A stretch of 64,000 bases of DNA, taken from NCBI RefSeq assembly GCF_049337375.1, contig NZ_JBMPIV010000015.1; one strand, 5' to 3'. The translations under genes were made by a program, and so were the position numbers. Below the pieces are notes generated by a model. The model did not search any database, was not told the DNA's origin, and saw nothing but the letters and a program-made list of their open reading frames with translations. This stretch comes from Nannocystis pusilla. GTDB lineage: Bacteria; Myxococcota_A; Polyangia; Nannocystales; Nannocystaceae. Positions 4,787 through 45,500 of this stretch are shown one piece after another (position 1 is the first letter of the stretch; the number at the start of each line of letters is the position of its first letter).

Positions 4787-5106
4787 GGGCAGCCTTCGGG
4801 CGCCGGCTGCGGCTGTCCTCGCAGACCTGTCCCATCGGCCAGCTCGCGTCCCACCGACTCGACTCGCGGCCGCCGAAGCTCCAGGCGTGAACGGTCCTCC
4901 GTCCGACCCGGCCGAGACGGCTCCGCGCCGGGCTCGACCGCCCGGTGATTTCGCCGCCCGCCAGCCGGCCGTCATCGAGCCCGAGGCCGTGTGAGGCGAC
5001 GAGCCCTGCCATCAAGCCTCGTTTTCGGTCGCCCTCCGCGGCCCTCGCCCGTTCGCGCGAAATCGCCCCTCGCACCTGCAGCACGACCTCGGCTACCGTT
5101 CTCGCC

Positions 5107-5664: not shown

Positions 5665-5802
5665 GCCGTTTGTGCGCTGCACAAATCAGGCCTTGATCTC
5701 GGGCCGCGTCGGCCTATCCTCGGCCGGCAGACCCCGGCAGGCCGTTTCGCATGTGCAGCACGGCCGGGCCTTCGGGTAGCCTCGGGAGCGGAGGATCTTC
5801 GC

Positions 5803-7326
<1,524 letters not shown>

Positions 7327-7339
7327 GACTTTATTCGCC

Positions 7340-19134: not shown

Positions 19135-19303
19135 GGCGCCGGGAGTGCCGCGCGAGGACCGCGGTTGTCATTTTGGCAACCCGCCTCGGACGGCCTGACA
19201 ATTGCGCGTGACACCCTCGTTCTGGCTCCAGGAGTTGCTTTAGAATCATTCGCTTTTCACCGAGGACCCCGAATTGCACACCGCGGGTTCGACTCGAGCG
19301 CCC

Positions 19304-20713
<1,410 letters not shown>

Positions 20714-20722
20714 CGGAGAGCG

Positions 20723-24192: not shown

Positions 24193-24211
24193 AGCTATCC
24201 TGTTGTCTGAG

Positions 24212-26059: not shown

Positions 26060-26065
26060 CGAAGC

Positions 26066-27304
26066 ATGCCGGCGTACGCGTACACGGGCCTGCGCAAGGA
26101 CGGCAAGACGGTCAAGGGCGTCGAGTCGGCCGACACGGTCGCCGCGCTCAAGGCCAACCTCAAGCGCGCCGGCATCTTCCTCACCGCGGTCAGCGAGACC
26201 ACGGCGCAGGTGGCGGCCGCGGGCGGGGCGGGGGGGCGCGAGGTCGACCTCGGGGCGCTGTTCGACCGCATCTCGCAGAAGACGGTTTCGCGCACCACGC
26301 GGCTTTTGGCCACGCTGCTGTGCGCCGGCGTCACGCTGCCCGAGTCGCTGTCGGCGATCACCGAGCAGAGCGAGAGCCGGCGGCTCAAGGGCATCCTCAG
26401 CGACATCGCCAACAAGGTGAACGAGGGCAGCTCGCTGGCCGACGCCTGCGCCCGCTACCCCGACGTGTTCCAGCCGCTGTTCATCAACATGGTCCGCGCG
26501 GGCGAGGCGTCCGGCTCGCTCGAGACCGTGCTCCTGCGCATCGCCGACTTCATGGATCAGCAGGAGGAGCTGAAGGGCAAGGTCACCTCGGCGATGATCT
26601 ACCCGGCGATCATGACCGTGCTGTCGGGCGGCATCATCACGATGCTGATGCTCAACGTGGTCCCGCAGATCACGGAGATGTTCGAGGGCATGAACGCCCA
26701 GCTGCCGTGGAACACCGCGTTCCTGATCTGGCTCAGCGACTTCATCGCCGCCTGGTGGTTCATGATCATCGTCGGCTTCTTCGCCGCCGGCTGGCTGTTC
26801 CGCCGCTGGCGCAAGACCGACATCGGCCGCGCGACCGGCGACACCATCCTGCTCAAGCTGCCGATCATCGGCGACCTCGCACGCAAGCTGGCGATCGCGC
26901 GGTTCGCCCGTACACTTGCGACCATGCTCGCCAGCGGCGTGCAGCTGCTCGCGGCGCTCGACATCGTGCGGGCGCTGCTCGGCAACTGGGTGCTCGAGAA
27001 GGTCGTCGCCACCGCCCGCGACAACATCCGCGAGGGCGAGGGCATCGCCCCGGCGCTCAAGCGCAGCGGCCAGTTCCCGGCCCTGGTGACGCACATGATC
27101 TCGGTCGGCGAGCGCTCCGGTCAGCTCGAGCAGATGCTCACCGACGTCGCCAACGCCTACGACCGCGAGGTCAACACCGCGCTCACGCGCATGACCGCGC
27201 TGCTGGAGCCCCTCATGATCGTGCTCATGGGCGGCAGCGTCGGCTTTATCGTGTTCTCGATCATGCAGCCGATCATGATGCTCAACGAAATGGCCGCGCA
27301 GTAG
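26066..27304 (+). CDS. gspF: Type II secretion inner-membrane platform protein GspF
   Basis: Two T2SSF repeats and three TM segments. Typical motif VGERSGQLEQML. 412 aa. Confidence 0.95.
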   Translation: MPAYAYTGLRKDGKTVKGVESADTVAALKANLKRAGIFLTAVSETTAQVAAAGGAGGREVDLGALFDRISQKTVSRTTRLLATLLCAGVTLPESLSAITEQSESRRLKGILSDIANKVNEGSSLADACARYPDVFQPLFINMVRAGEASGSLETVLLRIADFMDQQEELKGKVTSAMIYPAIMTVLSGGIITMLMLNVVPQITEMFEGMNAQLPWNTAFLIWLSDFIAAWWFMIIVGFFAAGWLFRRWRKTDIGRATGDTILLKLPIIGDLARKLAIARFARTLATMLASGVQLLAALDIVRALLGNWVLEKVVATARDNIREGEGIAPALKRSGQFPALVTHMISVGERSGQLEQMLTDVANAYDREVNTALTRMTALLEPLMIVLMGGSVGFIVFSIMQPIMMLNEMAAQ

Positions 27305-27330
27305 CCCGAGTACCTCAGGAGAGACCACCC

Positions 27331-27777
27331 ATGAATCCGCAACTTCACACCGTCCGCCAGGCCGTCCGCCGCCGTCGTCAGAGCCGCGGCATGACGCTGA
27401 TCGAGATCCTCGTCGTGCTGGCGATCATCGGCCTCATCGTCGGCGGCGTCAGCGTCGTCGCCTTCAACGCGCTCTCGGACTCGAAGGTCAAGGTCGCCTA
27501 CAACGAGGTGGTCGAGATCCAGAAGCTCAGCGAGCAGTACATGCTGCAGAAGAACGACAAGTGCCCGAAGAGCATGGCGGACCTCAAGGCCGCCGGCGTC
27601 ACGGCGCGCGTCAAGAAGGACCCGTGGGGCGAGGAGTACGTCATCGTCTGCCCCGGTCAGCACGGTCCGGTCGACGTCACCTCCAACGGCCCCGACAAGA
27701 AGCCGTCCGGCGGCGACGATGTCAACAGCTGGGAGGACCCGAAGGAGATCGAGGCCGCCAAGGAGGAGAAGAAGTGA
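27331..27777 (+). CDS. gspG: Major pseudopilin GspG
   Basis: Prepilin leader ...RQSRG|MTLIEILVVLAIIGLIVGG with Glu+5. GspG core DPWGEEYVIVCPG...GGDDVNSWE. Embedded in the long spurious ORF 24427..27777; the ATG at 27331 is in frame. Confidence 0.9.
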   Translation: MNPQLHTVRQAVRRRRQSRGMTLIEILVVLAIIGLIVGGVSVVAFNALSDSKVKVAYNEVVEIQKLSEQYMLQKNDKCPKSMADLKAAGVTARVKKDPWGEEYVIVCPGQHGPVDVTSNGPDKKPSGGDDVNSWEDPKEIEAAKEEKK

Positions 27778-27818
27778 TCGGGCGCTAGCCCCGATCGTTC
27801 TCTCCCGCGAGGATCGTC

Positions 27819-28820
27819 ATGGCCATGCGGAGTCGACATCAAGCAGCGCGCGCTCGGCGAGGGAGCCTCGGCTTCACGTTGATCGAGGTCCTCGTGGTCA
27901 TGGGGATCCTCGCGCTGCTGATCGGCTCGGTGATCACCGGCCTCGGCGCCAGCAAGCAGGCGCAGGTGGCCCGCGTCACCAACCAGCTCGCCAACACGAT
28001 CCGCTTCGCCTACAACAAGGCCCGCGTCACCGGCACCTACTACCGCCTCCTCATCGACATCGACAAGAACTCCTTCACCATGCAGCGCGGCGACGACCGC
28101 ATGTACCTGCCCGCGACCGACCGCTACGGCCGGATCGTCGTCATCGACCCGGGCAAGGTGAAGGAGAAAGAGGAGCGGGACAAGCGGGCCGAGGAGAACT
28201 ACAACCGCTCGCTGCAGGCGCGCGTCCTCGACGCCGTCAAGGGCGCGCCGGTCGGCAAGCCGGGCCAGACCATGGGCCCGATGGGGCAGCCGATGGCGAG
28301 CGTGGCCCAGGGGACAGGTACTCCGGGACAGCCGACGAAGGCCGGCACCCCGGGCGCGCCGGCGACCCCCGGGCAGCCCGCGGCGGCCGGTGCGGCCAAG
28401 CCGGGCACCACGCCGTCCTCCGGCCAGTCGCTCGACAAGTACATCACGCCGCCGAAGAAGGTCCCGCGGCGCAAGCCGCCGATCTTCGGCGCCTTCGAGG
28501 ACGACAACAGCCTGTCGGAGCTGCGCAAGCCGTTCAAGTTCCCGGCGGAGGTCAAGGTCATCGCCGTGCGCACCGCCGAGGACCTCAAGCCGATCACCAA
28601 GGGCGAGGCGAGCCTCTACTTCTTCCCGCAGGGCCACACCCAGCTGGCGCACATCCACGTGCAAGAGGTCGCCAACCCGGAGAACGAGTTCACCATCATC
28701 GTCAAGCCGCTGACCGGCCGCGTCGAGGTCAAGGAGGGCCACATCGACCTGGCGCTGCAGGAGGACCCGACGGCGATCCGCGACGACCTCGGCAAGAAGA
28801 TGAACCGGAGGGCGTTCTGA
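27819..28820 (+). CDS. gspH: Minor pseudopilin GspH-like
   Basis: Prepilin N-terminus G|FTLIEVLVVMGILALLIG. Long periplasmic domain with a Pro/Gly-rich insert. Confidence 0.8.
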   Translation: MAMRSRHQAARARRGSLGFTLIEVLVVMGILALLIGSVITGLGASKQAQVARVTNQLANTIRFAYNKARVTGTYYRLLIDIDKNSFTMQRGDDRMYLPATDRYGRIVVIDPGKVKEKEERDKRAEENYNRSLQARVLDAVKGAPVGKPGQTMGPMGQPMASVAQGTGTPGQPTKAGTPGAPATPGQPAAAGAAKPGTTPSSGQSLDKYITPPKKVPRRKPPIFGAFEDDNSLSELRKPFKFPAEVKVIAVRTAEDLKPITKGEASLYFFPQGHTQLAHIHVQEVANPENEFTIIVKPLTGRVEVKEGHIDLALQEDPTAIRDDLGKKMNRRAF

Positions 28821-28821
28821 C

Positions 28822-29580
28822 ATGACCTCGCGCGACACCAAGCGCCCGCGGCTGCGGCCGCCCGAGCAGCGCTACGCCGCGGCAGGCTTCACCCTGCTCG
28901 AGGTCATGATCGCCATGGCCGTGCTGGCGCTGTCGCTGACCTCGATGCTCACGTCGCAGATGGCCAGCCTGCGGGCCACTCGCTACGCCCAGACCATCAC
29001 CTCGGTGGCGTTCCTCGCCGACTACCAGCTCATCGAGACCGAGTACATCGTCCGCAAGGAGGGCGGCTGGGTGCTCGAGGACAAGTTCTACGAGGGCACC
29101 TTCGCCGACCAGGGCTGGCCCGACGTCAAGTACAAGTGCATCGTCGACTTCCTCAAGCTGCCGGAGTTCACCGAGCTGCGCGCGGCCAAGGACGACACCG
29201 ACCGGGCCAACCGCGGCGAGAGCAGCATGTACTACCGCAGCGCCGCCGATCAGGCGTTCACGGCGCTCGGCATGGTCTGGACCCCGGTCAAGCAGGCGAT
29301 CGAGCGCTCGATCCGCAAGGTCAAGTGCACGGTCAAGTGGAAGAACGGCAACCTCGACGAGGAGTTCATCGTCAACACCTTCTGGGCCGACCCGGAGAAG
29401 CTCAAGCAGCTGCCCGGCCTCGGCGGCGAGGCGAAGGAGGGCGACCTCGGCGACGAGAAGCCGCAGGGCGGCGGGGCCGGGACCGGCACAGGGACCGGCG
29501 CCGGGGCGCAGCCGGCCGGCGGGCGCCAGACGGGCGCGACGGGGCCGGGGGCGAGCATGGGCATGGGAGGGAAGCGATGA
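28822..29580 (+). CDS. gspI: Minor pseudopilin GspI-like
   Basis: AAG|FTLLEVMIAMAVLAL prepilin motif. 252 aa with a Gly-rich tail. Stop overlaps gspJ start (ATGA at 29577-29580). Confidence 0.8.
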   Translation: MTSRDTKRPRLRPPEQRYAAAGFTLLEVMIAMAVLALSLTSMLTSQMASLRATRYAQTITSVAFLADYQLIETEYIVRKEGGWVLEDKFYEGTFADQGWPDVKYKCIVDFLKLPEFTELRAAKDDTDRANRGESSMYYRSAADQAFTALGMVWTPVKQAIERSIRKVKCTVKWKNGNLDEEFIVNTFWADPEKLKQLPGLGGEAKEGDLGDEKPQGGGAGTGTGTGAGAQPAGGRQTGATGPGASMGMGGKR

Positions 29581-30302
29581 GCACCATCGGCCATGTCGTT
29601 CCGACCATGTCCTCCAGGACATCCCGCCAGCGCGGCCTGTCGCTGATCGAGATCCTCGTCGCGGTGGCGATGATGACGATGATGACCGCGTCGGTCTACG
29701 CCAGCTTCAGCACCACGGCGCAGAGCATGCGTTCGGCGGAGAAGACTCAGCAGAAGTACGCGGTGCTGCGCAACTGCCTGGCGCGCATGGGCACCGAGGT
29801 CTCGCTGGCGTACCTGTCGCACAACCGCCCGGCCGGCGACGACAAGCACTACACGCTGTTCGAGGGCCGCGACCAGTTCAACTCCGACAGCCTGACGTTC
29901 TCGGCGTTCGCCCACATCCGCATGCGCAAGGACGCCAACGAGAGCGATCAGTCGGTCGTCCAGTACTTCCTCGCCAAGGACCCGAACGACGCCAACCGCA
30001 CCCACCTCTTCAAGCGCGAGACGCGGCGGCTGATGGGCGACGTGCCGGAGAAGATGGAGGAGTGGTGGCCGGCCTACGTGTTCTGCGAGGACATCAAGTC
30101 GTTCGACGTCAAGTTCTGGGACGTCAAGCGCATCGAGTGGCGCGACGAGTGGCGCACGATGAAGCAGGACATGCAGCCCAACCGCCTGCCCGAGCGCGTG
30201 AAGATCACCCTCGGCGTGTGGGACGCGGACCTCGGCAAGGAGGTCAAGTACGTGACCCAGACCCTCATCCCGATGCAGGAGCGCATCGACTTCTCCCGCT
30301 GA
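29577..30302 (+). CDS. gspJ: Minor pseudopilin GspJ-like
   Basis: QRG|LSLIEILVAVAMM prepilin motif. RBS GGGAGGGAAG upstream. 241 aa. The upstream part of ORF 29136..30302 was rejected. Confidence 0.8.
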   Translation: MSTIGHVVPTMSSRTSRQRGLSLIEILVAVAMMTMMTASVYASFSTTAQSMRSAEKTQQKYAVLRNCLARMGTEVSLAYLSHNRPAGDDKHYTLFEGRDQFNSDSLTFSAFAHIRMRKDANESDQSVVQYFLAKDPNDANRTHLFKRETRRLMGDVPEKMEEWWPAYVFCEDIKSFDVKFWDVKRIEWRDEWRTMKQDMQPNRLPERVKITLGVWDADLGKEVKYVTQTLIPMQERIDFSR

Positions 30303-30315
30303 AAGGCCCCCGCCC

Positions 30316-31686
30316 GTGACCGCCCACGCCGACACCGCCAAGCCCAAGCGACATGTCCGTCCGGCCAGGTCCGGCGCGGCGCGTCGGCGCGGCGGCGGCA
30401 AGGAGCACGGCATCGCGCTGCTGATGGTGCTGGCCTGCATCGCGGTGCTGCTGCCGTTCACCGCCGCGTTCAGCTACACCACGCGCGTCGACTGGCAGGC
30501 CGCGATCAACCTGCGCGACGAGATCTCGGCGCGCAACCTGACCCGCGGCGGGATGCGCCTGTCGCTGCTGCTGTTCGAGCTGCAGCGCATGGTGTTCAAC
30601 CAGAAGCAGTTCCGGCAGATGCTCGGCACCTGGGACATCACCCAGGTCGCGCCGTACCTGATGTCGGCGTTCGGCTCGAAGGACGGTCACGAGGCCATCT
30701 CGGGCCTGGTCGGCCTCGACAACTCGACCTTCAAGGATCTCGCCATCGACCACGGCGGCTTCGAGATCCGCGTCGAGGCCGAGAGCGGCAAGCTCAACGT
30801 CAACTGCCTGGCGTCGGCCGGGCAGGGCAAGGACAACTCGCAGGCGCGCACCGTCGAGACGCTCGAGGCGATGCTGATGCCGACGCTCTACGACCCGCTG
30901 TTCGACGAGGAGAAGAGCGACGGCCAGCGCTACACCCGGGCCGACGTCATCAAGGCGATCGTCGACTACATCGACGAGGACAACAAGTCCTGGGACATGG
31001 TCAAGCTGGCGTCGTCGTCGACGCAGGAGCGCTACCGCTACACCGAGATCTTCGACCCGTACCAGCCGCGCAACGCCCGGATCGACAGCGTCGAGGAGCT
31101 GCACCTGGTCCAGGGCGTCGACGACGACCTGATGACGGCGATCGCCGCCGACCTCACCGTCTACGGCGGCTGCAAGGTCAACCTCAACTTCGCCAGCGCC
31201 GACCAGATCGCGCTGGTGCTGCGCCACTCGGTCACCGAAGAGGACAAGTGGAAGACCGAGGGCGAGAACTTCCTGATCAAGACGCTGCCGCTGGCCCGCT
31301 ACGTGGTCGACACGCGGACGATGAGCCTGTTCGCCGACATGAAGGCGTTCAAGGAGTTCGTCGAGAAGCCCGACAAGTTCATGAACCCGCTGGCCGCGCT
31401 CGGCGGCGGCGGGGCGGCCGGGCAGGCGCTCAACCGGGCCAACCTGCCGCGCATCCCCGAGGGCATGAACATCCGCGAGAACAGCGAGGAGAACAAGGAC
31501 TCGGGCGAGCAGCTCGGCGGCCTCAGCGACATCGCCACCATCGCCCCCGAGCGGGTCTATCGCATCGAGATCATCGCCGAGGTCGGCGCGGTCAAGAAGC
31601 GCCTCACCGCGATCTACGACATGCAATTCGTCCGCAGCGAGGGCGCGAAGGGCACCGGCGCGTGGCTCTACCTGCGCGAGGACTGA
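30316..31686 (+). CDS. gspK: Minor pseudopilin GspK-like
   Basis: GIALLMVLACIAVLL N-terminal helix, large periplasmic domain. Position after gspJ is conserved. GTG start. Confidence 0.8.
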   Translation: MTAHADTAKPKRHVRPARSGAARRRGGGKEHGIALLMVLACIAVLLPFTAAFSYTTRVDWQAAINLRDEISARNLTRGGMRLSLLLFELQRMVFNQKQFRQMLGTWDITQVAPYLMSAFGSKDGHEAISGLVGLDNSTFKDLAIDHGGFEIRVEAESGKLNVNCLASAGQGKDNSQARTVETLEAMLMPTLYDPLFDEEKSDGQRYTRADVIKAIVDYIDEDNKSWDMVKLASSSTQERYRYTEIFDPYQPRNARIDSVEELHLVQGVDDDLMTAIAADLTVYGGCKVNLNFASADQIALVLRHSVTEEDKWKTEGENFLIKTLPLARYVVDTRTMSLFADMKAFKEFVEKPDKFMNPLAALGGGGAAGQALNRANLPRIPEGMNIRENSEENKDSGEQLGGLSDIATIAPERVYRIEIIAEVGAVKKRLTAIYDMQFVRSEGAKGTGAWLYLRED

Positions 31687-31726
31687 TCTCCATGGCTCTC
31701 ATCTTCAACCGCAAGGACTGCCGCAC

Positions 31727-33481
31727 GTGGCTCAGAAGTACGTAGGACTCGACCTCGGAACCTCCGAAGTCAAGGCCGTGCTCATCAACGCCGGCCTGCG
31801 CACCATCCAGGTGCTCGAGACGGTCGTCGAGCCGGTGACGCTCACGCCGCAGGGCGACACCTCGCTGGCCGCCGCGCTCGACATCGGCATCGCCGTGCTG
31901 CGCCGCCGCGGCTGGAACCACTACCCGATCGGCGTGGTGCTGCCCGGCAGCTTCGCGGCCTATCGCGTGTTCAAGTTCCCGTTCAGCGACCCGCGCCGGA
32001 TCGCCCAGGCGATCGCGTTCGAGGCCGAGGGCCAGTTCCCCGTCCCGCTCGAGAACCTCGAGCTCGACCACGTGCCCGCGACCGTCGCCGGCGGCGGCGG
32101 CCAGGCGCTCGCGGTCGCGGTCCGTCGCTCCGCCGTCGACCAGGTCCAGGCCGCGTTCAAGGCGGCGACGATCGACGTCAAGCTCATCACCGTCGACGTC
32201 CTGGCGACCGCGCAGGTGCTCACCGCCGACCTGCCCGAGCCGGCCAAGGGCGCGCCCTCCGAGGCGCGCACGCCGGTGGTGCTCGGCCTCGACATCGGCC
32301 ACGCGACCACCGACCTGGTGGCCTTCGGCGCCAAGGGCCCGCTCGCGGCCCGCATGCTCCGCCGCGGCGGCGTGCACGTCACCCGCGCGCTGCAGCAGCG
32401 CTACCAGCTGAGCGACGCCGAGGCCGAGACAGCCAAGCGCGACAACGCCTTCCTGCCGCACCGCGGCCAGGGCGACCTGTCGGCGGAGCAGCTCGAGTCG
32501 GCGACGATCGTGGCCCGCGCGCTCGAGCCGGTGGTGCGGGAGATCGAGCACACGCGCATGTGGCTGCGGGCCGAGTTCTCGGCCGAGGTGGTGCAGCTGC
32601 GCCTGTCCGGCGGCGGCGCCAACCTCCGCGGCCTCGACGCCTACCTGGCCGAGCAGCTCGGCCTGCCGACCGAGCGCGCCCGCCCGCGCGAGAGCCTCGG
32701 GCTCAAAGGTCTCGCGGGACATGACTGGACGGCCATGTCGGCCGCGCTCGGCGGCGCCGTCGGCTGCGCCCGTCGGCCGCTGATCCAGCTGCACAAGGAC
32801 GCCGCCGTCCAGCGCGGCGGCGACGGCAGCTGGATCGCCGAGCGGATCGCCACGGTCGCCGCGCTCGGGTTCGCGATCCTCGCGTTCGGCGTGGTCGACA
32901 CCGTGGTCGGCTCGAGCGCGCTCGAGGCGGAGCGCGCGGCCTACGAGGAGGAGCTCGGCGAGGCCAGCCACAAGGTGTTCGGCGAGGCGCTCACCTCGAA
33001 GGCCGAGATCGAGGAGCGCCTCAACGCCGTCGACGGCCGCGACATCACCAAGCTGATCCCGCAGCGCGGCGCGCTCGACGTGCTCGCGGGCTTCGTCAAG
33101 GCGGCCACGCCGACCGGCCCGAAGCCGGCGCCGGCGCCGACGCCGATGGTGGCGGAGGAGGGCGCCAGCCCCGACGCCGAGAGCGGGTCGGCGACGACGC
33201 CGACGTCGCCGGTCCAGCTGCCCTCGGTCGAGGGCTCGGCGGGCGTCGTGTGGGACGACGAGTTCGTGCTGTCGCTGATCGAGATCCGGCCGCGCGCGAT
33301 CCAGTTCCGCGCCTCCGCCACGCGCTCGTCGGCGCAGGAGCGGTTCAAGAACAAGCTGCTGCAGACGCTGCCCTGCGTCATCCCGTTCCAGGTCGCCAAG
33401 GTGCGCGACGAGGGCACCAAGAAGGTGTTCGACCCCAACATCGAGCACGACTGCTACAGCAGCACGGAGACCGAGTCGTGA
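31727..33481 (+). CDS. gspL: GspL-like assembly protein (cytoplasmic actin-like/PilM-like domain + TM + periplasmic domain)
   Basis: N-terminal YVGLDLGTSEVKAVL actin-like ATPase fold start, a TM segment (AALGFAILAFGVV), and a periplasmic C-terminus. Position in the operon fits GspL. Confidence 0.7.
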   Translation: MAQKYVGLDLGTSEVKAVLINAGLRTIQVLETVVEPVTLTPQGDTSLAAALDIGIAVLRRRGWNHYPIGVVLPGSFAAYRVFKFPFSDPRRIAQAIAFEAEGQFPVPLENLELDHVPATVAGGGGQALAVAVRRSAVDQVQAAFKAATIDVKLITVDVLATAQVLTADLPEPAKGAPSEARTPVVLGLDIGHATTDLVAFGAKGPLAARMLRRGGVHVTRALQQRYQLSDAEAETAKRDNAFLPHRGQGDLSAEQLESATIVARALEPVVREIEHTRMWLRAEFSAEVVQLRLSGGGANLRGLDAYLAEQLGLPTERARPRESLGLKGLAGHDWTAMSAALGGAVGCARRPLIQLHKDAAVQRGGDGSWIAERIATVAALGFAILAFGVVDTVVGSSALEAERAAYEEELGEASHKVFGEALTSKAEIEERLNAVDGRDITKLIPQRGALDVLAGFVKAATPTGPKPAPAPTPMVAEEGASPDAESGSATTPTSPVQLPSVEGSAGVVWDDEFVLSLIEIRPRAIQFRASATRSSAQERFKNKLLQTLPCVIPFQVAKVRDEGTKKVFDPNIEHDCYSSTETES

Positions 33482-34086
33482 GCGCCATCGAAACCACCCT
33501 GTTCGGGTTCATGTCCCGCTTCAACCCGCGCGAGCGGGCGCTGCTCGGCGTGCTGATGCTGGTGTTCTTCGTCACCGCGGTCGGCGTGCTCTACATGATG
33601 CGCAAGAGCTCGTTCGACACGGCCCGCGCCGAGATCGCCGAGCTGCGCGAGGCCCTCGTCCTCGTGCGCACCAAGGGCACCGCGTACGACACCAAGAAGA
33701 AGGAGAAGGAGGCGCGCGAGGGCCGGATCGCCAGCGCCCAGCCGATCGTGTTCTCGATCCTCCTCGAAGAGGCGCAGAAGAACCTCGTCACGGGCACGCT
33801 GCGCGGCGAAGAAGAGCGACAGCCGATGGTGGTCGACGAGGAGAAGGGCCTGACCAAGCGCGTGGTCGCGTTCGAGGTCCGCAACGTGGCGCTCGAGGAG
33901 CTGCTGAACTTCCTCGCCAAGCTCGAGGGGCAGCCGGGCAACATCCTGTTCGTCGAGCGCCTGATGCTGCGCTCGCCCTCGGCGCTCGAGGACCGCCTCA
34001 ACGCCGAGGTCGAGCTCGCCACGTGGCAGCTGCAGAAGCCGGAAGAGCCGGCGCCGGTGCCCGGCGGCGAGGAGGGGGAGTCGTGA
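33478..34086 (+). CDS. gspM: GspM-like protein
   Basis: Short cytoplasmic N-terminus, one TM (LLGVLMLVFFVTAVGVLYMM), and a periplasmic domain. GTG at 33478 overlaps the gspL stop. ATG 33511 is an alternative start. Confidence 0.6.
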   Translation: MSAIETTLFGFMSRFNPRERALLGVLMLVFFVTAVGVLYMMRKSSFDTARAEIAELREALVLVRTKGTAYDTKKKEKEAREGRIASAQPIVFSILLEEAQKNLVTGTLRGEEERQPMVVDEEKGLTKRVVAFEVRNVALEELLNFLAKLEGQPGNILFVERLMLRSPSALEDRLNAEVELATWQLQKPEEPAPVPGGEEGES

Positions 34087-35621
34087 AGATCCGCCTGCCC
34101 AACCTCGCCAACCTGCGCCGCGGCGGCGGCGACCTGCCCGCGGCCCCGCCCGCGAGCGGCACCATCGTCGCGCCGGCGGCCCCGATCGGCGGCTTCGGCG
34201 ACCGCATGCGCCTGTTCTCGCGGCGCCTCCGCAGCTCCGCCGGCTGGGTGTTCCTGGCCGTGTTCGTGTTCTTCGCCTTCATCTGGATCAGCCTGCCGAC
34301 CCGCGCGCTCGCGTGGCGCATCGGCCACCAGGCGCGCCAGGCCGGCTACCTGATCGACATCGAGGACATGTCGGTGCGGCCGTGGGGCAGCGCGACGCTC
34401 TACAACGTCACGTGGACGTACGCGCCGTCGCACCCGGGCCAGATCCCGCACCAGATGGTGCTCGACGCGGTCGACGTCGACTTCTCGATCCTCGGCTACC
34501 TGCTGCTCGGCAACATCGACGTCGAGGTCGACACGATGCTCGACGAGGCGCCGATCCACGCCGAGTACGCGCGCAGCAGCAGCGAGTCGAGCATCAAGAT
34601 CGAGGTCACCGAGCTGCCGCTCGGCTCGGTGCCGAAGCTGCAGCAGGCGCTGGGCGCCCCGCTGCGCGGCCTGTTCGCCCTGCACGTCGACATGACGATG
34701 CCGGAGAACCTGTTCGAGAAGGCCGAGGGGTCGATCTCGCTCGAGTGCGCCTCGTGCTCGATCGGCGACGGCGAGGAGCTGCTGTTCATCCCCGGCTCGT
34801 CGGGCATCACCGCCAAGGGCATCACCATCCCCGAGATCGACCTCGGCACGCTGGTCGGCAAGCTGAAGGTCGCGGAGGGCCGGGCCACCGTCGAGGACTT
34901 CAAGACCAAGAGCGCCGACATCGAGCTCGAGCTCACCGGCGACATGCCGCTCAAGGATCCGTTCTCGAAGTCCGAGTTCGCGTTCCAGATGAAGCTGCTG
35001 GTCACGCAGGCGCTGCAGGACAAGAGCGAGACGCTGCGCTTCGCGGTGCAGACTGCCGGCCCGTCGTCGAAGATGGATCCGCCGGACGACGGCTGGCTCG
35101 GCTTCAAGCTGCGCGGCACCGTCGGCAAGCCGCGCTTCATGGGCATCAAGAGCAAGACCGCCGAGGAGCGGATGCTCGAGCGGCGGCAGAAGAACGCGGA
35201 GCGCGAGGCGGCCAAGAAGGCGCGCACCAAGTCGCGTTCGACGAAGAAGACCGAGGAGAAGGACGCGCTCGAGCGCAACAACGGGCCGGAGCTGCCGAGC
35301 GTCGGCGCGGGCGAGACCGGCGGGGCCGACCGCGAGCCGACGAAGGCGCCGGACACCGAGATGCGTCCGGCCGAGCCGCCGTCGACGCCCTCGACGCAGC
35401 CGCCGCCGCCCGAGCCGGAGCCCGAGGCGCGGCAGGAGGAGCCGCCGCCGCCGCCGCCGTTGCCGCCGGCGATGGAGGAAGTGCAGCAACCGGAGGGTGG
35501 TCAGGGGCAGGGCCAGGGCGACGGTCAGGCCCCGCCCGAAGGCCAGCCGGACGGCCAGGCGCCGGCCGAGGCGCCCCGCGAGGGTGAGGCGCCGCCGCCG
35601 AATGACGCGCCGACTGGCTGA
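34083..35621 (+). CDS. gspN: GspN-like protein with long Pro/Glu-rich C-terminal tail
   Basis: TM (WVFLAVFVFFAFIWISL) plus periplasmic domain, at the last position of the gsp operon. GTG 34083 overlaps the gspM stop. ATG 34206 is an alternative start. Confidence 0.55.
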   Translation: MKIRLPNLANLRRGGGDLPAAPPASGTIVAPAAPIGGFGDRMRLFSRRLRSSAGWVFLAVFVFFAFIWISLPTRALAWRIGHQARQAGYLIDIEDMSVRPWGSATLYNVTWTYAPSHPGQIPHQMVLDAVDVDFSILGYLLLGNIDVEVDTMLDEAPIHAEYARSSSESSIKIEVTELPLGSVPKLQQALGAPLRGLFALHVDMTMPENLFEKAEGSISLECASCSIGDGEELLFIPGSSGITAKGITIPEIDLGTLVGKLKVAEGRATVEDFKTKSADIELELTGDMPLKDPFSKSEFAFQMKLLVTQALQDKSETLRFAVQTAGPSSKMDPPDDGWLGFKLRGTVGKPRFMGIKSKTAEERMLERRQKNAEREAAKKARTKSRSTKKTEEKDALERNNGPELPSVGAGETGGADREPTKAPDTEMRPAEPPSTPSTQPPPPEPEPEARQEEPPPPPPLPPAMEEVQQPEGGQGQGQGDGQAPPEGQPDGQAPAEAPREGEAPPPNDAPTG

Positions 35622-35701
35622 ACGCCGTGCCAGTGCGCCTTTCATGCCAGACATGAAAATCTCGCAACGATAGGAGAAACGTCGTGGGCGGGGGACGCGG
35701 G

Positions 35702-35719
35702 TTTGCGCGAGCGCGCAAA
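35702..35719. promoter_or_regulatory. Perfect 8-2-8 palindrome TTTGCGCG-AG-CGCGCAAA upstream of the second sigma54 regulator gene
   Basis: Read directly. About 65 bp upstream of ATG 35785 and about 80 bp downstream of the gspN stop. Could be an operator or an intrinsic-terminator-like stem. Confidence 0.4.
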
Positions 35720-35784
35720 GTATGCATTACACCCGCGCATCTTCCGCCCGCAGAGTAGGCGAAGCCCCCGCGGAGGTACCGCCT

Positions 35785-37203
35785 ATGACGAACTTTGAAG
35801 AGACCAGGCCGACCCGAATTTTAGTGGTCGATGACGAGTCAAGCGCACGCTCTGCACTCAGCGAGCTGCTGCGCGAGGAAGGTTATGAAGTCCAGTCCGC
35901 CGCCGACGGATACAAGGCGCTCGGACGCATCGACCAGTGGGAGCCGGATGTCGTCATCACCGACGTCAAGATGCCCGGCCTCAACGGCCTCGAGCTCATA
36001 TCCAAACTCCGTGAACTCTACCCTGACGTCGCGGTCGTCGTGATGACGGCCTTCGGCTCGGTCGAGGGCGCCGTCGAGGCGCTCCACCTCGGCGCCGACG
36101 ATTACCTCAGCAAGCCCGTCGACCTGCCGCAGCTGCTCATCGTGCTGCAACGGGTCCTGCGACACCGCGCGCTGCAACGCGAGGCCCGCCACCTCCGCTC
36201 GGCGCTCGAGAGCCAGCGCGCCGACCAGCGCGCCGGCATCATCGGTCAGTCGAAGGTGTTCCGCGACCTCCTCGGCCTCGCGCGCCAGGTCGCCGACTCG
36301 CCGGTGTCGGTGCTCGTCACCGGCGAACGCGGCACCGGCAAGCAACACCTGGCGCGCCTGATCCACCACTGGTGCGGCCGCCGCGGTCCGTTCGTCAGCC
36401 TGCAATGCAGCGGCTTCACCGACGAGGCGTGCGCCCGCGAGCTGTTCGGGGTGCGCGACGGCGAGGCGGTGCTGCGCGAGGGCCGACTCGTCGAGGCCGA
36501 CGGCGGCACGCTCTTCCTCGCCGACGTCGACGAGCTGCCCCCGGGCGTGCAGGCGGCGCTGCTGCGGTTCCTGCAGGATCGGGCGTTCTGCCGCGTCGGC
36601 GACAGCGAGCCGCTGCAGGCCGATGTCCGCGTGATCGCGGCCACCAGCCAGGACTTCGGCGCGGCCAGGGGCAGCAAGCTGCGCGAGGACCTGTACTACC
36701 GCCTCAACGTGGTCAGCCTGCGCATGCCGTCGCTGCGCGAGCGCCGGGATGACATCCCGCTGCTGGCGATGCACTTCCTGCGGCAGTTCGCAGCCCAGGC
36801 ACATCGACCGGTGGTCGGCTTCAGCGAGCGGGCGCTCGGGGTGCTGCTCGGGTGCGACTGGCCGGGCAACATCCGTCAGCTCGAGAACAGCGTCGAGCGA
36901 GCGGTGGTGCTCGCGCGCGGGGCGGAGATCGAGCCGCGCGACCTGCCGCGCGAGCTGATGTCGAAGATGCGCGGCGACGACTCGGCGCCCGTGATCCCGG
37001 GCGCGTCGCTGCGAGAGATCGAGCGCTACGCGATCCTGCGGACGCTCGAGCACGTCGGCGGCAGCACCAGCAAGGCCGCGAAGATCCTCGGGATCTCGCC
37101 GCGCAAGATTCAGTACCGCCTCAACGAATACCGCGTCGCTCCGCAGACGGGGATGCCCCCCGTGCCACCCGAACCGCACGCGCACCGCGGCGCGCTGAAG
37201 TAG
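35785..37203 (+). CDS. Sigma54-family enhancer-binding response regulator with degenerate GAFTGA loop
   Basis: REC domain ([10 protein letters not shown]54-equivalent), AAA+ (GERGTGKQ, R-finger) and HTH. The GAFTGA position reads [23 protein letters not shown] 8 nt upstream of ATG 35785. Confidence 0.85.
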
Positions 37204-37367
37204 GGCGCAGAACATCGAACCGCGGCGCGTGACCACGGTTCATCGACTTCGAAGACTGTCCCGAAGGACATGTCGTGTCTCTCCAGCGCCGCCGCCCCCG
37301 CGCGCGTGGGAGCGCGCGTCGGGTGACATCGCGGCAGCGTGTTACGCTCGCGCCTTCGGAGGGTGCG

Positions 37368-39767
37368 ATGAAGGAGATCGAGATTCGGATCGGGCGTGGC
37401 GCCGCGGCCACGCGTTTCGCCGCCGTCCTGGTCAAGTCGGGCAGCACGGCCACCCGCAGCTTCGAGCGCGCGCGCAGCGGGCCGGGCGTGCAGATCCACC
37501 TCACCGGCGAGCGCGACTACCACGTCGCCCTCGTCGCCGAGCCCTCGGCGGCCGACAAGGCGCTGCTGCGGTCGTCGGTCGGGCACAAGATCCTGCTCGA
37601 CTTCCCCGGCCGCCGCGCCGTCCGCCAGCGCCTCGCCGGTCTCTCGGGACAGGGCCTTCAGGACAGGCCGGAGCCCCAGGCGGCGGCGCTCGACCTGACC
37701 GCGGGCATCCACGGCGCGGCCCCGCTGTTCCTGCTGCCGTCCGGCGAGCTGGCCGGCGACGCTGCCGGACCTGCACCGAAGGACATGTCGTCGCTGCCGG
37801 TGTTCGTCGCCGCGGCGCGCTGGATCTCCGCGCGGCGGACCTCGAGCTTCGAGTGCCTGTTCCCGCCGAGCGCGTTCTTCCCCGACGAGCCGCTGCGGGC
37901 CGAGCGGCTGACGCGGGCGCAGGCAGGTGCGCTGCTGCAGCAGGTCGAGGCGGTGTTGACCGCGGCGGCGCCCGCAGGTCCGCACGGGGCGGTCGACGAT
38001 GCGGTGCAGCTGCGCTCGGCGGCGCTGACGGTGCTGTCGCACGTGGTCGCCACGGTGCTCAAGGACCCCGAGTTCCGCGCCGCCGCCGACGCGGCCGCCG
38101 CTCGCATCCTCCGGCTGATCGACGACGAGGCCGGACCCGGCGGACGCAGCGAGCTGCGGGCGCACGCCATCTCGCTGCTCTCGCTGCGCGGCCCGGCCCT
38201 GCGGCCCGAGCAGCAGGCGCGCGCGCAGGCGCTGCTGCGCTCGCTGTCGCGGCAGGCCCCGCCGTACGCGGCGCTGAACGGGCCGTGGCGGTTCGCTGTG
38301 GCCTCGGCCTCCGAGTTCTTTCCGGGCGAGGTCGAGCTGCTGCAGACCAAGTACGGCTTCACCAAGATCGCCGCGCCCGAGGGCACGCCGAAGCCGCCGA
38401 ACCAGTGGGGCGAGGGCTACGCGGTGCTGCAGGCGCCGTTCGTCGGCAAGGGCGGGCGCGAGTTCTTCGTGTTCGCCCGCTCGGCCTCGCCGCGCGACGA
38501 GAACTTCGAGATGTCGCAGGAGTTCTTCACCGGCCTGCTCGTCAGCCGCCACGCCAACCTCGGCGCCTACGACATGCGCGCCTCGGCGATCCAGACCCAG
38601 CAGGTCGGCTACAAGCTGATGATGAACTGCCAGTGCGCCGGGCTGACCACGCGCTTCGCCATCGCCCGCATGTTCCCCGACGCCGACATCTTCTCGAGCT
38701 GGGACTCGACCTACTTCCGCACCGGCGAGGGCGACAAGGTGGTGGCCTCGGAGGGCATCGACTGCTTCGTGGCGATCCTGCGCGGCCTCGCCGAAGAGGA
38801 GGACTTCGCGGCGATCGACCAGCGGATCCGCAAGGCCCAGTGGCACCACCGCCAGAGCCGCACGCCCGACTTCGTGCAGTTCATCGGCCCGGCCCACCCG
38901 CTGGTGGTGGCGCGCTACCAGGACATCAACCGCGACGGCAAGGCCGACTACTACGACGGCTTCCTCGACTTCCGCCTGGTCGAGATCGCCGAGAGCCTCA
39001 AGGACTCGGCGGTGCCGCGCGACCCCGGCGCGTCGCCGTCGCAGATCAGCGGCGAGGCGGCGCGCGGGCTCGGCTGGGCCGCCGGCAGCCTCAATCGGGT
39101 CACGCAGTACTCTGAACTTTGGGACAGCTTGCCGGGCCAGGCCGAGATCCTGTACGCGTTCCGGGCCGGCGGCTTCTTCAGCGGCGCCGAGCCGCCGCGC
39201 GACGTGCCGGCCGGCAAGGGCCCCCGCGGAGAGCTCGGCCGCTTGCCCGCGGTGGTCCGCTACGTCCGCGACCCGGCCGGCGACGCGCTGACCGCCGACG
39301 TTTTGTTTCACAGCCACCTCAGCCACAGCGCGCAGGAGCTCAAGCGCTTGCTGGTCGCCGCCGAGGCGTGGTGGCGGGCGATCGACCTCGGCTACCTCGC
39401 CGACGCGCCGCCGCTCGACACGCTGCTCGGCCAGCGCGCCGGACTGCTGCTGCTGCTCGCCGGCTTGCTCGAATTCCCGGCCGACCAGAACTTCGTCGAC
39501 GGCCTGTGGGAGATGGCGCTCGACATGCTGCAGCTGCCGCGGCTGTCCCGCTCGCTGATCCGCCGCTGCAACAGCGACGAGGACCACGACAACGGCAACT
39601 ACTATGGGTCGGTGCGAGGCATCCGCGAGCTCGTCGGCACGGCCGAAGCCCCCGGCGGGGCGCTCAAGCAGGCCAACCCGGAGGCCTACGAGGACCTGGC
39701 CGCCGCCGACCCGGCGATCGGCCGCGCCCGCCCGCTCGGCGAGGTCGCGCAGGCGGCAGGGGTGTGA
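37368..39767 (+). CDS. Large hypothetical protein (about 800 aa), function unknown
   Basis: Good RBS (GGAGGG), diverse amino-acid composition, and GC3-rich codons. Contains the motif MMNCQCAGLT and an EF-hand-like loop DINRDGKADYYD. No confident family assignment. Confidence 0.6.
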   Translation: MKEIEIRIGRGAAATRFAAVLVKSGSTATRSFERARSGPGVQIHLTGERDYHVALVAEPSAADKALLRSSVGHKILLDFPGRRAVRQRLAGLSGQGLQDRPEPQAAALDLTAGIHGAAPLFLLPSGELAGDAAGPAPKDMSSLPVFVAAARWISARRTSSFECLFPPSAFFPDEPLRAERLTRAQAGALLQQVEAVLTAAAPAGPHGAVDDAVQLRSAALTVLSHVVATVLKDPEFRAAADAAAARILRLIDDEAGPGGRSELRAHAISLLSLRGPALRPEQQARAQALLRSLSRQAPPYAALNGPWRFAVASASEFFPGEVELLQTKYGFTKIAAPEGTPKPPNQWGEGYAVLQAPFVGKGGREFFVFARSASPRDENFEMSQEFFTGLLVSRHANLGAYDMRASAIQTQQVGYKLMMNCQCAGLTTRFAIARMFPDADIFSSWDSTYFRTGEGDKVVASEGIDCFVAILRGLAEEEDFAAIDQRIRKAQWHHRQSRTPDFVQFIGPAHPLVVARYQDINRDGKADYYDGFLDFRLVEIAESLKDSAVPRDPGASPSQISGEAARGLGWAAGSLNRVTQYSELWDSLPGQAEILYAFRAGGFFSGAEPPRDVPAGKGPRGELGRLPAVVRYVRDPAGDALTADVLFHSHLSHSAQELKRLLVAAEAWWRAIDLGYLADAPPLDTLLGQRAGLLLLLAGLLEFPADQNFVDGLWEMALDMLQLPRLSRSLIRRCNSDEDHDNGNYYGSVRGIRELVGTAEAPGGALKQANPEAYEDLAAADPAIGRARPLGEVAQAAGV

Positions 39768-42367: not shown

Positions 42368-42545
42368 TATGGTCGAAGAGACATGTCCGGGCGGTCATGC
42401 CTGACGTCCCCTGCGAGCGCGGCTGGAGCCGGCCTGCGGAGCTGACGGACATGATCGGACGGACATGCCCGAAGCGCCATGCTGCTTCGGGCATGTCTTC
42501 GAGGACATGCCCGAAGCGACAGGCTCTCAGCTACCGGCGGTGAAG
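42368..42545. repeat. Cluster of REP-like palindromes between convergent genes
   Basis: gaagagacatgtccgggcggtcatgcc...gacggacatgatcggacggacatgcccgaagcgccatgctgcttcgggcatgtcttcgaggacatgcccgaagcgacagg, which form several overlapping hairpins. Confidence 0.8.
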
Positions 42546-45500
42546 TCCTCGCGGTTGCTGTCCCACCAGGCCTGCCAGGCGCGCAGGGCCAGGTCGCGGC
42601 TGCGGCGGTCGCCCTCGGCCGGGAACGGGATCCGCTGCCCGGTGATCCGCGCCAGCTCGTCGGCGGCCCAGCGGCGCACAGCCTCGTCGCGGTGGCGCAG
42701 GCCGTCGATGACCCACTCGATGCGCGGCTCCTGGCCGTGCTCGGCGTACCAGGCCCGCCAGCGCTGGGCGCGGTAGCCGTGGTGCTTGGCGGTGATCGAG
42801 CACAGGGCCTCGAGCGCGGCCTCGCGGACGTGTTTGTCGCGGACCGCCAGCAGGTCGATGAGGCGCGGCACCGCGAGGGTGTCGCGCAGGGTGCCGGCGG
42901 CCTCGACGGCGAGCAGCTGGCGGTCGCGGTCCGAGCTCTCGAGCTCGCCGCGGATCTCCGCGGCCACCGCCGCGAAGTCGGGCACGCGGCTGTAGGACTC
43001 GAGCACGCGGGTGGCGATCAGCCGCACGTCGGGGTCGGGGTCGAACGCCAGCTCGCCGAGCGGCCGCAGGCACTTCGGGTCGCGCAGCTCCTGGAACAGG
43101 AACGCGGCGTAGAAGCGGATCTGCGGCCGTGCGCTGGCGAACAGGGCGAGCACGTGCGGGCTGACCGCGTGCCCGAGCTCGACGCAGGCGCGCAGCAGCG
43201 GGCCGTGAGCGCTCGGCGGCGGGAAGTTGGTCGCGTTGGCGAGGTCGATGGGACCGGGGAAGCGCGCGGCCAAGCGGGCCAGGCCGCGCTCGTCGAGCGC
43301 GCGCAGCCGCGACACGCTGGTCCACTCGGCCGGGTTCTGCAAGAAGTCCTCGATCACCGCGTCGATCTCGCGGTCGTCGAGCGCCGCGCCGGAGGCGGCC
43401 TCGGCGGTCGCGGCCGGCTCCTCAGTCGACGGCTCGTCGCTCGCGGGGGGCTCGGCGGCCGGCGCGGCCGCGGGGCGGTCGGCCGCCGGCGGGGCCGCGA
43501 TGGACCCGCTGGCTTCGGCGGCGTTGCCGGGCCCGCTCGCGTCGACCTGCGCCTTGGAACCGGTCGCCAGGGACATGTCCTCGGGGGCATGTTCCGCCGG
43601 GATGGCCCCTCGCGCGGTCGACTGGGCCGAGGCGTCGTCGGCCTCCGCCTCGCGCACCAGCTTGGGCATGGTCAGGGCGCTGGACGAGGAGTCGGGGCGC
43701 GGGTCGTGCTTGCCGCGCCGCCGGCCGCTGCGCGGGCCGATCAGCGTGGTCGGCATCGACAGCGTCGGACCGCCCTCGAGCTCGTCGGGGTCGCTGCGAC
43801 GGGCCATCGGGTGAGGCGTGGCGGTGAGGCCGCCCGAGCGCCGCAGCGTCTTCGGGATCACCAGCACCGGCTCGTCCTCGGCCGGCTCGTTCGCGCGGCG
43901 ACGGCGGCCCGCGCCGGGCGTGCCGGGCGGGGCGACGAGGTTGGGGATCAAGGTCTCGGGCGGGACCGGGGAGTCGACCCGCGGGAGGTCGAGGACGGTC
44001 TTGGCGTCGGGCGCGGCGCGGGTCTCGACCAGCAGCGGCTCGTGCGTCGGCGGCGGCGAGAGGTCGAGGATGGTCGGGGTGTCGGAGGCGGCGCGCGGCC
44101 ACTCGTCGAAGTCGTCGCGCGTGGATGCCCGCGTGGTCTCCTCGAGCACTACCCGCGGCGCGCCCGGCAACGTCGCCGCCGGATCGTGATCGACGCGGGC
44201 CTCGGCGGCGGTCGCGGCCGAACGCAGCGCCGCGGCCACGGGCAGCGGGTCCTCGATGCCCGACGGCTCGGCGGTGGCGATCCAGCCCGGCATCTCGGGC
44301 TGCGGGCTCGCCGGCGGCGGCTCGGGGCTGTCCGATCGGGCATGTCCGAAGGTATTGGGCCGATCGGACAGGTCGATCGTCACCGCCGGCAGCGGCGGCT
44401 TGGTGAACATCGCGGCGAAGCGGGCCACGAGCGGGCTGTCCTGGCCGTTCTCGGGGCCGAGGGGCACCGGGACCGGCGCGAGGCCGAGGCCGGGGCCGTC
44501 GCGGCGCGGCGGCGGGCTGTCGGGCTCGTCGGGGTCGTCGGTGAGGTCCTCGTACTCCGGCTCGTCGGCGGGCGGGGACGGCGGCTCGTCGGCGAGCGTC
44601 TGGGCCCGCACGAGCGCCGAGCTCTCGGCGCGCACCGGCAGCGGCGTCACGGTCGCCGGGTCGTCGCGCCGGATCGGGTTCTTCAGGGTGATGACGGCGC
44701 GCCCGCGGTTGGCGCGGCTGCGCAGCCGGCCGGCGAGGCTGTTGCTGTCCCCGAAGCCAGGTTCACTCGCGGCGCCGCTCGCGGTCGGCGGCGCCTCGGG
44801 CTCGTCGGGCTCGGCCGACGCCTCTGCGGCCGGCGGCTCGGGCTCGCTCTCCGAGCTGTCCGCAGAGACAGGTGGCGTCGTGGCCGGCGCGTCGGTCTCG
44901 TCGACGGTGACGATCGGGGTCGCCAGGTGCGGCCGGATCGACGGGCGCGTGCGGTCGGCCGGGCCGGCCCCGGGCGTGCCGCCGGGCACCACCCACCCGA
45001 GCAGCCGCAGCAGCGCCTCGAGGCTCTGCCGGGCCGTGTCGCACAGCTCGCGCAGGACGGTCCGTTCGCGCGGATCGAAGGCGACGCCGGAGCGGTCGAG
45101 GTAGAGCATCAGCACGGTGCGGCCGCCGGCGAGCACGGGCTCGAAGATGCAGGGGATCCCCAGCGGCTGGCCGACGGCGAACGACAGGCTCGGCTCGATC
45201 AGGAGGTGCAGCGGGCCCTGGCCGGACACCGCGCGATCGAGCAAGCCACCCTCGGGCAGCGGGATGACGAGGCCTTCGGACATCCGCAGCGCGCTGCCGG
45301 GCGCGGCCAGGACGCGCAGGCCCTCGCGCTTGACCCCGAACAGGGCCACGCGCGGGGCGATCAGCGCGGCGGCCCGCACCAGGGCCTCGGTGATCCGGTC
45401 GCGCTCGCGCGCGGTGGCGAGAGTGGCGCGGGCGGCGTCGAGGCGCTGCGCCAGAGTCATGACCATCGGCTGCGGCGCGGCCGGCGGCTTGCGCGTCGAC

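Follow-up and report, generated by a model that had tools for sequence, protein, structure and literature searches.

A stretch of 64,000 nucleotides from Nannocystis pusilla (contig NZ_JBMPIV010000015.1, assembly GCF_049337375.1; hereafter the window; G+C content, 71.7%) carries at positions 35785–37203 of its plus strand a gene for a homolog of the bacterial enhancer-binding proteins (bEBPs, or EBPs), referred to below as EBP2, while a GAFTGA-bearing paralog at 19274–20713 (+) is referred to as EBP1. We propose, with a probability of roughly 0.65, that EBP2 is an atypical EBP homolog, namely a phosphorylation-controlled, ATP-binding but non-hydrolysing DNA-binding regulator that would act independently of sigma-54 and whose targets are probably its own gene together with genes linked to type II secretion (T2SS for the system). 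The sigma-54 contact loop, the catalytic residue pair and the glutamate switch have been lost from the protein, whereas the nucleotide-binding residues, the trans-acting Arg residues, the phospho-acceptor and the DNA-binding residues have been kept, and it is this combination that leads us to infer a phosphorylation-controlled regulator that does not work as a motor.

Shortened L1 loop and degenerate ATPase motifs

The mechanically derived open reading frame (ORF) of EBP2 runs from 35722 to 37203 (+) and is longer than the likely coding sequence. The ATG at 35785, which gives a product of 472 residues, is most likely the start codon rather than position 35722, because a GGAGG ribosome-binding sequence is located at 35772–35776, 9 nt 5' of this ATG, because six Nannocystis orthologs begin with MTNFEE or MTKFEE, and because 1–2-nt indels between species in the C-run at 35764–35769 are incompatible with a coding frame. 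Pfam searches revealed a receiver (REC) domain (35818–36141, +; Response_reg, E = 8e-32), an AAA+ domain of the sigma-54-interaction type (36238–36720, +; Sigma54_activat, PF00158, E = 4.3e-43, 147 bits against a cut-off of 20.2), an AAA_lid_14 domain and a Fis-type helix-turn-helix (HTH) DNA-binding domain (HTH_8; 37006–37131, +; E = 1e-11), the last being the best-conserved part of EBP2. The receiver has the fold of a response regulator with an intact acidic phospho-acceptor pocket (DD, D60, T88 and K110 in the 472-residue numbering); in an alignment of 49 sequences of the clade, D60, T88 and K110 were invariant and D16/D17 nearly so, and the HTH contained a long invariant run, LGIS-RKIQYR. 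The protein is 99% identical to its counterpart in Nannocystis pusilla Na p29, and its AAA+ core is 38–47% identical to those of ZraR, NtrC1 and PspF. In an AlphaFold2 model for which the 49 clade sequences served as input (mean predicted local distance difference test score, pLDDT, 83.6), the receiver and AAA+ domains were linked by a long helix of residues 114–144.

The L1 loop is encoded by bases 36439–36483 (+), which lie in frame within the EBP2 ORF and specify a 15-residue segment with a net deletion of four residues. HMMER alignments to the solved proteins NtrC1 (1ny5/4l4u), NtrC4 (3dzd) and ZraR (1ojl) placed the gap exactly at GAFTGA, and the same four-residue gap was obtained by MAFFT against EBP1 and by BLASTP against PspF, for which we used a sequence whose numbering reproduces the published K42, N64, F85, T86, D107 and E108. 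The Phe and Thr of GAFTGA, which in bEBPs contact region I of sigma-54, are not present in the L1 of EBP2, and no GAFTGA was found anywhere else in the whole protein. In the AlphaFold2 model, L1 formed a short beta-hairpin (residues 222–225 and 228–232, with a two-residue turn; pLDDT > 90); the L2 element (RVGD) of the AAA+ fold is kept.

Compared with a canonical bEBP, EBP2 retains Walker A, the Arg fingers and sensor II but lacks GAFTGA at the L1 tip, the hhhhDE form of Walker B and the Asn of the glutamate switch. Walker A (GERGTGKQ; 36322–36345, +) is intact, its GxxGxGK pattern being invariant across the clade. The Arg fingers, the R of LRED and the R of YYRL in the sequence LREDLYYRL, lie at 36682–36702 (+); the second, R306, was invariant and the first, R300, nearly so in the 49-sequence alignment, and the sensor II Arg is found in GNIRQLE (36874–36876, +). 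In contrast, Walker B (36520–36525, +) has Ala-Asp in place of Asp-Glu, reading GTLFLADV where relatives have GTLFLDEI, which corresponds to D107 to A and E108 to D in PspF, and a Gln (36403–36405, +) stands at the position of PspF N64, the glutamate-switch Asn. This last position is Q, K, R, P, L or V within the clade versus N or H in GAFTGA-bearing relatives. Since its Walker B reads Ala-Asp, the AAA+ domain of EBP2 is probably not an active ATPase. In bEBPs, mutants in the Walker B Glu bind ATP and assemble without hydrolysis, an example being NtrC1 E239A (structure 3m0e). Across the L1-less clade, Walker B was observed as DE, DD, DA, PD, AD, LD, TD, GD and VD, and it is not constrained in the way that Walker A, the second Arg finger or the HTH is; the second of the two residues is nearly always acidic.

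The conservation of these features was assessed by aligning the top 120 database homologs and 79 genome loci (numbered with the prefix L), of which the 23 with at least 63% identity to EBP2 (L010–L032) come from Nannocystis and from metagenome-assembled genomes (MAGs) of other Nannocystaceae and Polyangia. All of these 23 loci had an L1 deletion of four or five residues, and the closest metagenomic homologs carry the same deletion as EBP2. In six independent Nannocystis assemblies (L010–L015), the consensus ELFGVR[DE]----G[EG]AVLREG was followed with at most two differing positions, which were conservative. A preliminary description of this locus had reported that GAFTGA is replaced in EBP2 at the position now identified as L1, that the paralog EBP1 retains it, and that Walker A, Walker B and R-finger residues are all present; the alignments bore out the first two statements, added that the degenerate motif is conserved among orthologs, and confirmed the third for Walker A and the Arg fingers but not for Walker B.

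The overall ratio of nonsynonymous to synonymous substitution rates (dN/dS) of EBP2, calculated by the Nei–Gojobori method against four Nannocystis species, was 0.09–0.13, with values of 0–0.08 for the HTH, 0–0.12 for the receiver, 0.03–0.09 for the lid and 0.12–0.24 for the AAA+ core. Purifying selection acts on EBP2, whose old Nannocystaceae lineage is tied to the T2SS gene cluster, and the protein combines the features of an atypical EBP, that is, PF00158 homology, a deleted GAFTGA motif and maintenance by selection.

In a neighbor-joining tree calculated after masking of the L1 and Walker B columns (200 bootstraps), the family with the four-residue deletion and a Nannocystis family with a 12-residue deletion formed a clade with a bootstrap value of 1.0, and the sister group (L056 and L061) likewise lacked L1 and had the Walker B sequence DD. 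The loss of L1 is, on this tree, an old event, because the two deletion families share a fully supported clade and their sister group is L1-less too. The four-residue-deletion family on its own received a bootstrap value of 0.53–0.56, and a genus-level subclade with Walker B of the form xD received 0.955. An order of events in which L1 was lost first and Walker B later was considered and dropped in view of the value of 0.53–0.56 and of an outgroup that already has DD. The closest relatives in which GAFTGA, GAFAGA or GAFVGA is retained are 60–63% identical to EBP2 and adjoin Usp genes; the idea that they are T2SS-linked orthologs, which would have made the loss recent, was rejected, as they are Usp-linked paralogs instead. 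Judging from the sequences, the L1 loss in the EBP2 lineage is an independent, Nannocystaceae-specific one.

The same survey revealed other EBPs with altered L1 loops. The 12-residue-deletion family has Walker B TD or AD and occurs in every Nannocystis genome examined, with one member each (L039, L046, L047, L051, L054 and L060), and other GAFTGA-less EBPs with L1 deletions of six to nine residues were found elsewhere in the Nannocystaceae (loci listed with such families: L036, L042, L045, L052, L056 and L061). All of these further families are annotated as sigma-54-dependent regulators. A Usp-linked family in Enhygromyxa, Plesiocystis and MAGs has GAFAGA throughout (Thr to Ala), and further families have GALPGT, GAVPGA or GAFPGA in place of GAFTGA (loci listed for GAFAGA and other variant motifs: L033–L035, L037, L038, L040, L053 and L072).

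Upstream palindrome and type II secretion cluster

A gap of 163 nt separates EBP2 from the preceding gene, gspN, and the 3' part of this gap, a leader of about 90 nt (approximately 35697–35784), is almost invariant in six Nannocystis species and diverges further upstream. The leader contains a putative operator-like element at 35702–35727, about 70 nt 5' of the EBP2 start codon, which is composed of two overlapping palindromes: TTTGCGCGAGCGCGCAAA at 35702–35719, a perfect 18-bp palindrome without a second match in the window, and GCGCAAAGTATGCAT at 35713–35727, the local form of GCGCA-W5-TGCGC with two mismatches. The candidate EBP2-binding sequence within 35690–35735 is TTTGCGCGAGCGCGCAAAGTATGCAT. 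An ATGCAT sequence also lies in the conserved leader, and no Rfam match was obtained for the leader. At loci outside Nannocystis, GCGCA-W5-TGCGC was located within 260 nt of the start codon, at 60–230 nt upstream, in 13 of 18 cases (L001, L016–L019, L021, L024, L025, L027 and L029–L032), a strong enrichment over a background of 0.011 per 290 nt in the same loci. It likewise precedes paralogs, Usp-linked and others, with the LGIS[PT]RKIQ recognition helix, among them genes that bear GAFTGA or GAFAGA (further palindrome-bearing EBP loci: L005, L006, L035, L041, L043, L044 and L072), and it was not found upstream of EBP1 orthologs. GCGCA-W5-TGCGC is thus probably the operator or enhancer type of the LGIS[PT]RKIQ HTH family, and the palindrome upstream of EBP2 is likely an autoregulatory site to which EBP2 itself would bind.

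No sigma-54 promoter was recognized in this region. The search for TGGCAC-N5-TTGC with up to two mismatches gave fewer matches than in shuffled sequence, with none near EBP1 or EBP2, and no -24/-12 match was observed between the palindrome and the EBP2 start. A scan for GG-N10-GC scored against the consensus gave nothing convincing upstream of EBP1, gspG or EBP2, although such an absence is not proof. No plus-strand terminator was found between gspN and EBP2 in a scan of 35300–37600.

The genes 5' of EBP2, on the same strand, form a complete T2SS cluster (20714–35621, +; Pfam assignments) that encodes a GspC-like PDZ protein, the secretin GspD, GspE, GspF, pseudopilins and GspK and ends with a PilM/GspL-like protein, a small ORF of GspM size and GspN, after which EBP2 follows. 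GspN matched TIGR04411 with 182 bits against a cut-off of 50, and its gene (34023–35621, +) also encodes a low-complexity C-terminal tail rich in Pro, Glu and Gln that extends about 150 residues past the match. The same T2SS gene order was observed in orthologous loci. The EBP2 ortholog has gspK, gspL or gspN within 10 kb upstream in no fewer than 18 of the 23 loci without L1, and in the gene tables of five orthologous loci EBP2 directly follows gspN in four, a single intervening gene on the opposite strand being present in the fifth. Of the remaining L1-less loci, one has lost its upstream region at a contig end and four are second copies (L022, L024, L026 and L027), two of which were shown to reside in MAGs that also carry the T2SS-linked copy. 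Two unlinked copies (L024 and L026, 3500–12600) share a conserved block of genes for a Ser/Thr kinase with TPR, a PEGA-domain protein, an amidohydrolase, the L1-less regulator itself and a UbiA prenyltransferase; this neighborhood offered no functional clue. No histidine kinase gene was found in the 64-kb window or in the gene tables of the five orthologous EBP2 loci.

The genes 3' of EBP2 are not conserved across orthologous loci. The one that follows it in the window (37275–39767, +) encodes an 830-residue protein that is positionally conserved only within the genus Nannocystis (91–98% identity in L009–L015) and has no Pfam or NCBIfam match.

EBP1, the canonical GAFTGA-bearing NtrC-type regulator (19274–20713, +), directly precedes gspC, so that EBP1 and EBP2 bracket one T2SS cluster. 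EBP1 was found at the cluster head in the two other genomes checked, on contigs shared with EBP2 (L089 with L007 and L090 with L020), and orthologs of both proteins occur on three further contigs. Judged by ortholog identity, EBP2 evolves faster than EBP1, because on these five shared contigs the identity to the window protein was 63–68% for EBP2 orthologs versus 79–84% for EBP1 orthologs. GTGACA/TGTCA repeats are conserved upstream of EBP1. In Myxococcus xanthus, nla4 is MXAN2516, gspD is MXAN2514 and gspK is MXAN2505; since nla4 adjoins gspD in this tag numbering, EBP1 appears to occupy the place that Nla4 has there. Among sigma-54 promoters, that of the M. xanthus T2SS operon MXAN2511 has been reported to be targeted by Nla28, and the secretin gene gspD has been reported to be essential and required for gliding slime.

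A few genes upstream of the cluster, a conserved gene (39–1661, -, in the window; 4901–6472, -, in L089; 512–2083, -, in L090) encodes a fusion of an NAD-dependent epimerase/short-chain dehydrogenase domain with a CPBP/Rce1-like intramembrane protease. MYXO-CTERM surface proteins of M. xanthus rely on the T2SS, and a link between the fusion protein and MYXO-CTERM sorting is speculative; its identification as a myxosortase was discarded, as it reached no NCBIfam cut-off of the myxosortase type.

Regulatory model and alternatives

In the model that we favor, an unlinked kinase would phosphorylate the receiver domain of EBP2, and phosphorylation would alter the dimeric or oligomeric state of the protein via the long linker helix. 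The AAA+ module may bind ATP without useful hydrolysis and would then serve for assembly rather than as a motor. The HTH dimer is predicted to bind palindromes of the GCGCA-W5-TGCGC type, including the one about 70 nt upstream of the EBP2 start codon, and bound EBP2 could activate or repress a non-sigma-54 (sigma-70-type) RNA polymerase by occupancy or recruitment. The targets would be the EBP2 gene itself and, plausibly, genes functionally tied to the T2SS. The earlier suggestion that a GAFTGA-less EBP cannot drive sigma-54 and may work as a repressor or anti-activator or with a different sigma factor is in line with published atypical EBPs and with the conservation described above. The further suggestion of the preliminary description that EBP2 might repress the targets of its paralog is not favored, because the HTH recognition helices of EBP1 and EBP2 differ and the EBP2 palindrome is absent upstream of EBP1 orthologs.

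Several observations weigh against this model. An Asp persists at the Walker B Glu position, so that residual activity is possible, and non-hydrolysis is deduced from motifs alone. Conservation extends to the Arg fingers and sensor II, which a plain dimeric repressor would not need. Because the palindrome also precedes GAFTGA- or GAFAGA-bearing paralogs with the same recognition helix, the site upstream of EBP2 could belong to a paralog. No GCGCA-type site was found at the T2SS promoters, and the regulation of the T2SS by EBP2 is consequently argued from synteny alone. Further, no sigma-70-type promoter was recognized in 35300–37600.

The Arg fingers, whose action is in trans from one subunit to another, are conserved despite a dead Walker B, and this would be accounted for if EBP2 co-assembled with EBP1, so that its subunits, lacking both L1 and hydrolysis, modulate or poison sigma-54 activation as an anti- or co-activator. 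The bracketing of the T2SS cluster by both genes in the window and in two other genomes, together with their joint presence on three further contigs, agrees with such mixed rings, and hetero-oligomeric EBPs reportedly occur in M. xanthus, to go by the title of a 2012 article by Volz et al. However, EBP1 and EBP2 are only 42% identical (MAFFT), each has its own, different HTH, and the four unlinked second copies of EBP2 lie far from any EBP1, and we regard this explanation as unlikely. A more elaborate arrangement, in which the sigma-54 activator that heads the T2SS cluster and its L1-less "Walker-B-trap" paralog at the tail form a matched pair, co-assembling or acting sequentially, with the dead subunit setting the threshold or timing of T2SS expression, is to be taken as a long shot; if true, it would mean that a sigma-54 activator has been given a hard-wired, dominant-negative partner.

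It is also rather improbable that EBP2 acts as an operator competitor, occupying the GCGCA-W5-TGCGC enhancers of same-helix GAFTGA or GAFAGA paralogs, for example the Usp-linked ones, and blocking their sigma-54 activation. The occurrence of this palindrome type upstream of the Usp-linked and other LGIS[PT]RKIQ paralogs is as expected of a competitor, as is the near-invariance of the HTH across EBP2 and the same-helix families, but the window contains no such paralog and no such site except at EBP2's own gene, and competition would leave the conserved T2SS linkage unexplained.

That EBP2 is still a sigma-54 activator, working through a non-canonical, shortened L1, we consider very improbable: the remainder of the AAA+ fold is kept, including L2, the Arg fingers and sensor II, but the GAFTGA Phe and Thr are missing from a hairpin four residues shorter, the Walker B Asp-Glu and the N64 switch are lost, no -24/-12 promoter is nearby, and published GAFTGA-less EBPs do without sigma-54. 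A sequencing error, which the preliminary description had named as a possible flaw, is excluded because the 12 missing nucleotides leave the frame intact and L1 is essentially the same in the six independent Nannocystis assemblies, and with the deletion shared by homologs down to 63% identity and a dN/dS of about 0.1 in every domain, a decaying pseudogene has next to no probability either.

The current genome annotation of EBP2 as a "sigma-54-dependent transcriptional regulator" is very probably wrong, and the construction of sigma-54 regulons or counts of activators in Nannocystis would be off owing to it. The misannotation reaches beyond EBP2 to the further GAFTGA-less families in Nannocystis and other Nannocystaceae. 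The fixed L1 deletion combined with varied Walker B states provides a natural series on the role of an AAA+ domain once it has been uncoupled from sigma-54, and the conserved position after gspN makes EBP2 a concrete candidate for a regulator tied to the myxobacterial T2SS.

Other features of the window were recorded in passing. The ORF at 17302–19134 (+) begins with four tandem copies of an Arg/Pro-rich unit of about 24 residues, followed by a weak N6_N4 DNA-methylase match just below the cut-off (25.8 bits). A gene of about 1800 codons at 42527–47998 (-) was assigned by codon-position G+C; it is overlapped by long spurious plus-strand ORFs, and its only matches are to HEAT/Arm repeats at the C-terminus. 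Genes related to polyhydroxyalkanoate metabolism at 4891–8880 (+) encode a PhaR-like regulator (PHB_acc_N), an AMP-binding ligase and a PhaC-like alpha/beta hydrolase.

Comparison with known systems

Among published EBPs, the atypical ones without GAFTGA work at sigma-70 promoters, in some cases with an altered Walker B; those listed are Rhodobacter capsulatus NtrC, Caulobacter NtrC, NtrX, VpsR, TyrR, PhhR, HupR and HsfA. In addition, repression of sigmaA promoters by occupancy occurs even among the canonical EBPs of myxobacteria, as described for PexR. By its motifs, EBP2 is a known kind of protein that resembles the atypical EBPs but belongs to no named family, and it reached none of the NCBIfam equivalog cut-offs.

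NtrX of Brucella abortus, Caulobacter and Sinorhizobium, which is reported to act as a repressor, has the same REC-AAA+-HTH architecture and an L1 deletion of three to four residues that removes GAFTGA, its motif having been described as EGxEG---GxxK/R. A Foldseek search with the EBP2 model also placed it (5m7n/o/p) at the top of the full-length matches, at only 33–34% identity. However, NtrX is encoded in alphaproteobacterial ntrYX operons with its cognate kinase, whereas EBP2 is T2SS-linked, has no adjacent kinase and shows no ntrY-ntrX context; its score of 341 bits falls short of the 600 bits required by the NtrX equivalog NF051870, and its Nannocystaceae clade is separate and of independent origin.

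VpsR of Vibrio cholerae, like EBP2, has no GAFTGA and a degenerate Walker B (ND in VpsR, AD in EBP2), and it is a class II activator of sigma-70 RNA polymerase with a site near the promoter. The two proteins are about 28% identical, and VpsR is activated by c-di-GMP and needs neither phosphorylation nor ATP, whereas EBP2 keeps a conserved phospho-acceptor pocket and Walker A. To our knowledge, EBP2 has no match to the c-di-GMP motifs of the FleQ type.

The NtrC proteins of R. capsulatus and Caulobacter are, like EBP2, response regulators whose GAFTGA has been removed by an L1 deletion; sigma-70 promoters are under their control, their receiver has to be phosphorylated, and R. capsulatus NtrC requires ATP binding but not hydrolysis, while hydrolysis was predicted to be necessary for Caulobacter NtrC. 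They differ from EBP2 in that their deletions comprise at least eight residues and that they are nitrogen regulators with a cognate NtrB, whereas EBP2 has no ntrB or glnA context. TyrR, PhhR and HupR share with EBP2 a sigma-54-activator-type AAA+ domain with a variant GAFTGA and independence of sigma-54, but TyrR and PhhR have ACT and PAS sensory domains instead of a receiver, and EBP2, at 188 bits, stays below the 576 bits demanded by the TyrR model NF008085. By description, M. xanthus HsfA is likewise a myxobacterial NtrC-like response regulator with a variant GAFTGA among the atypical EBPs; it is phosphorylated by a hybrid kinase encoded with it in the hsfBA operon and differs from EBP2 in this arrangement and in its regulation of lonD, pilY1 and secondary-metabolite genes.

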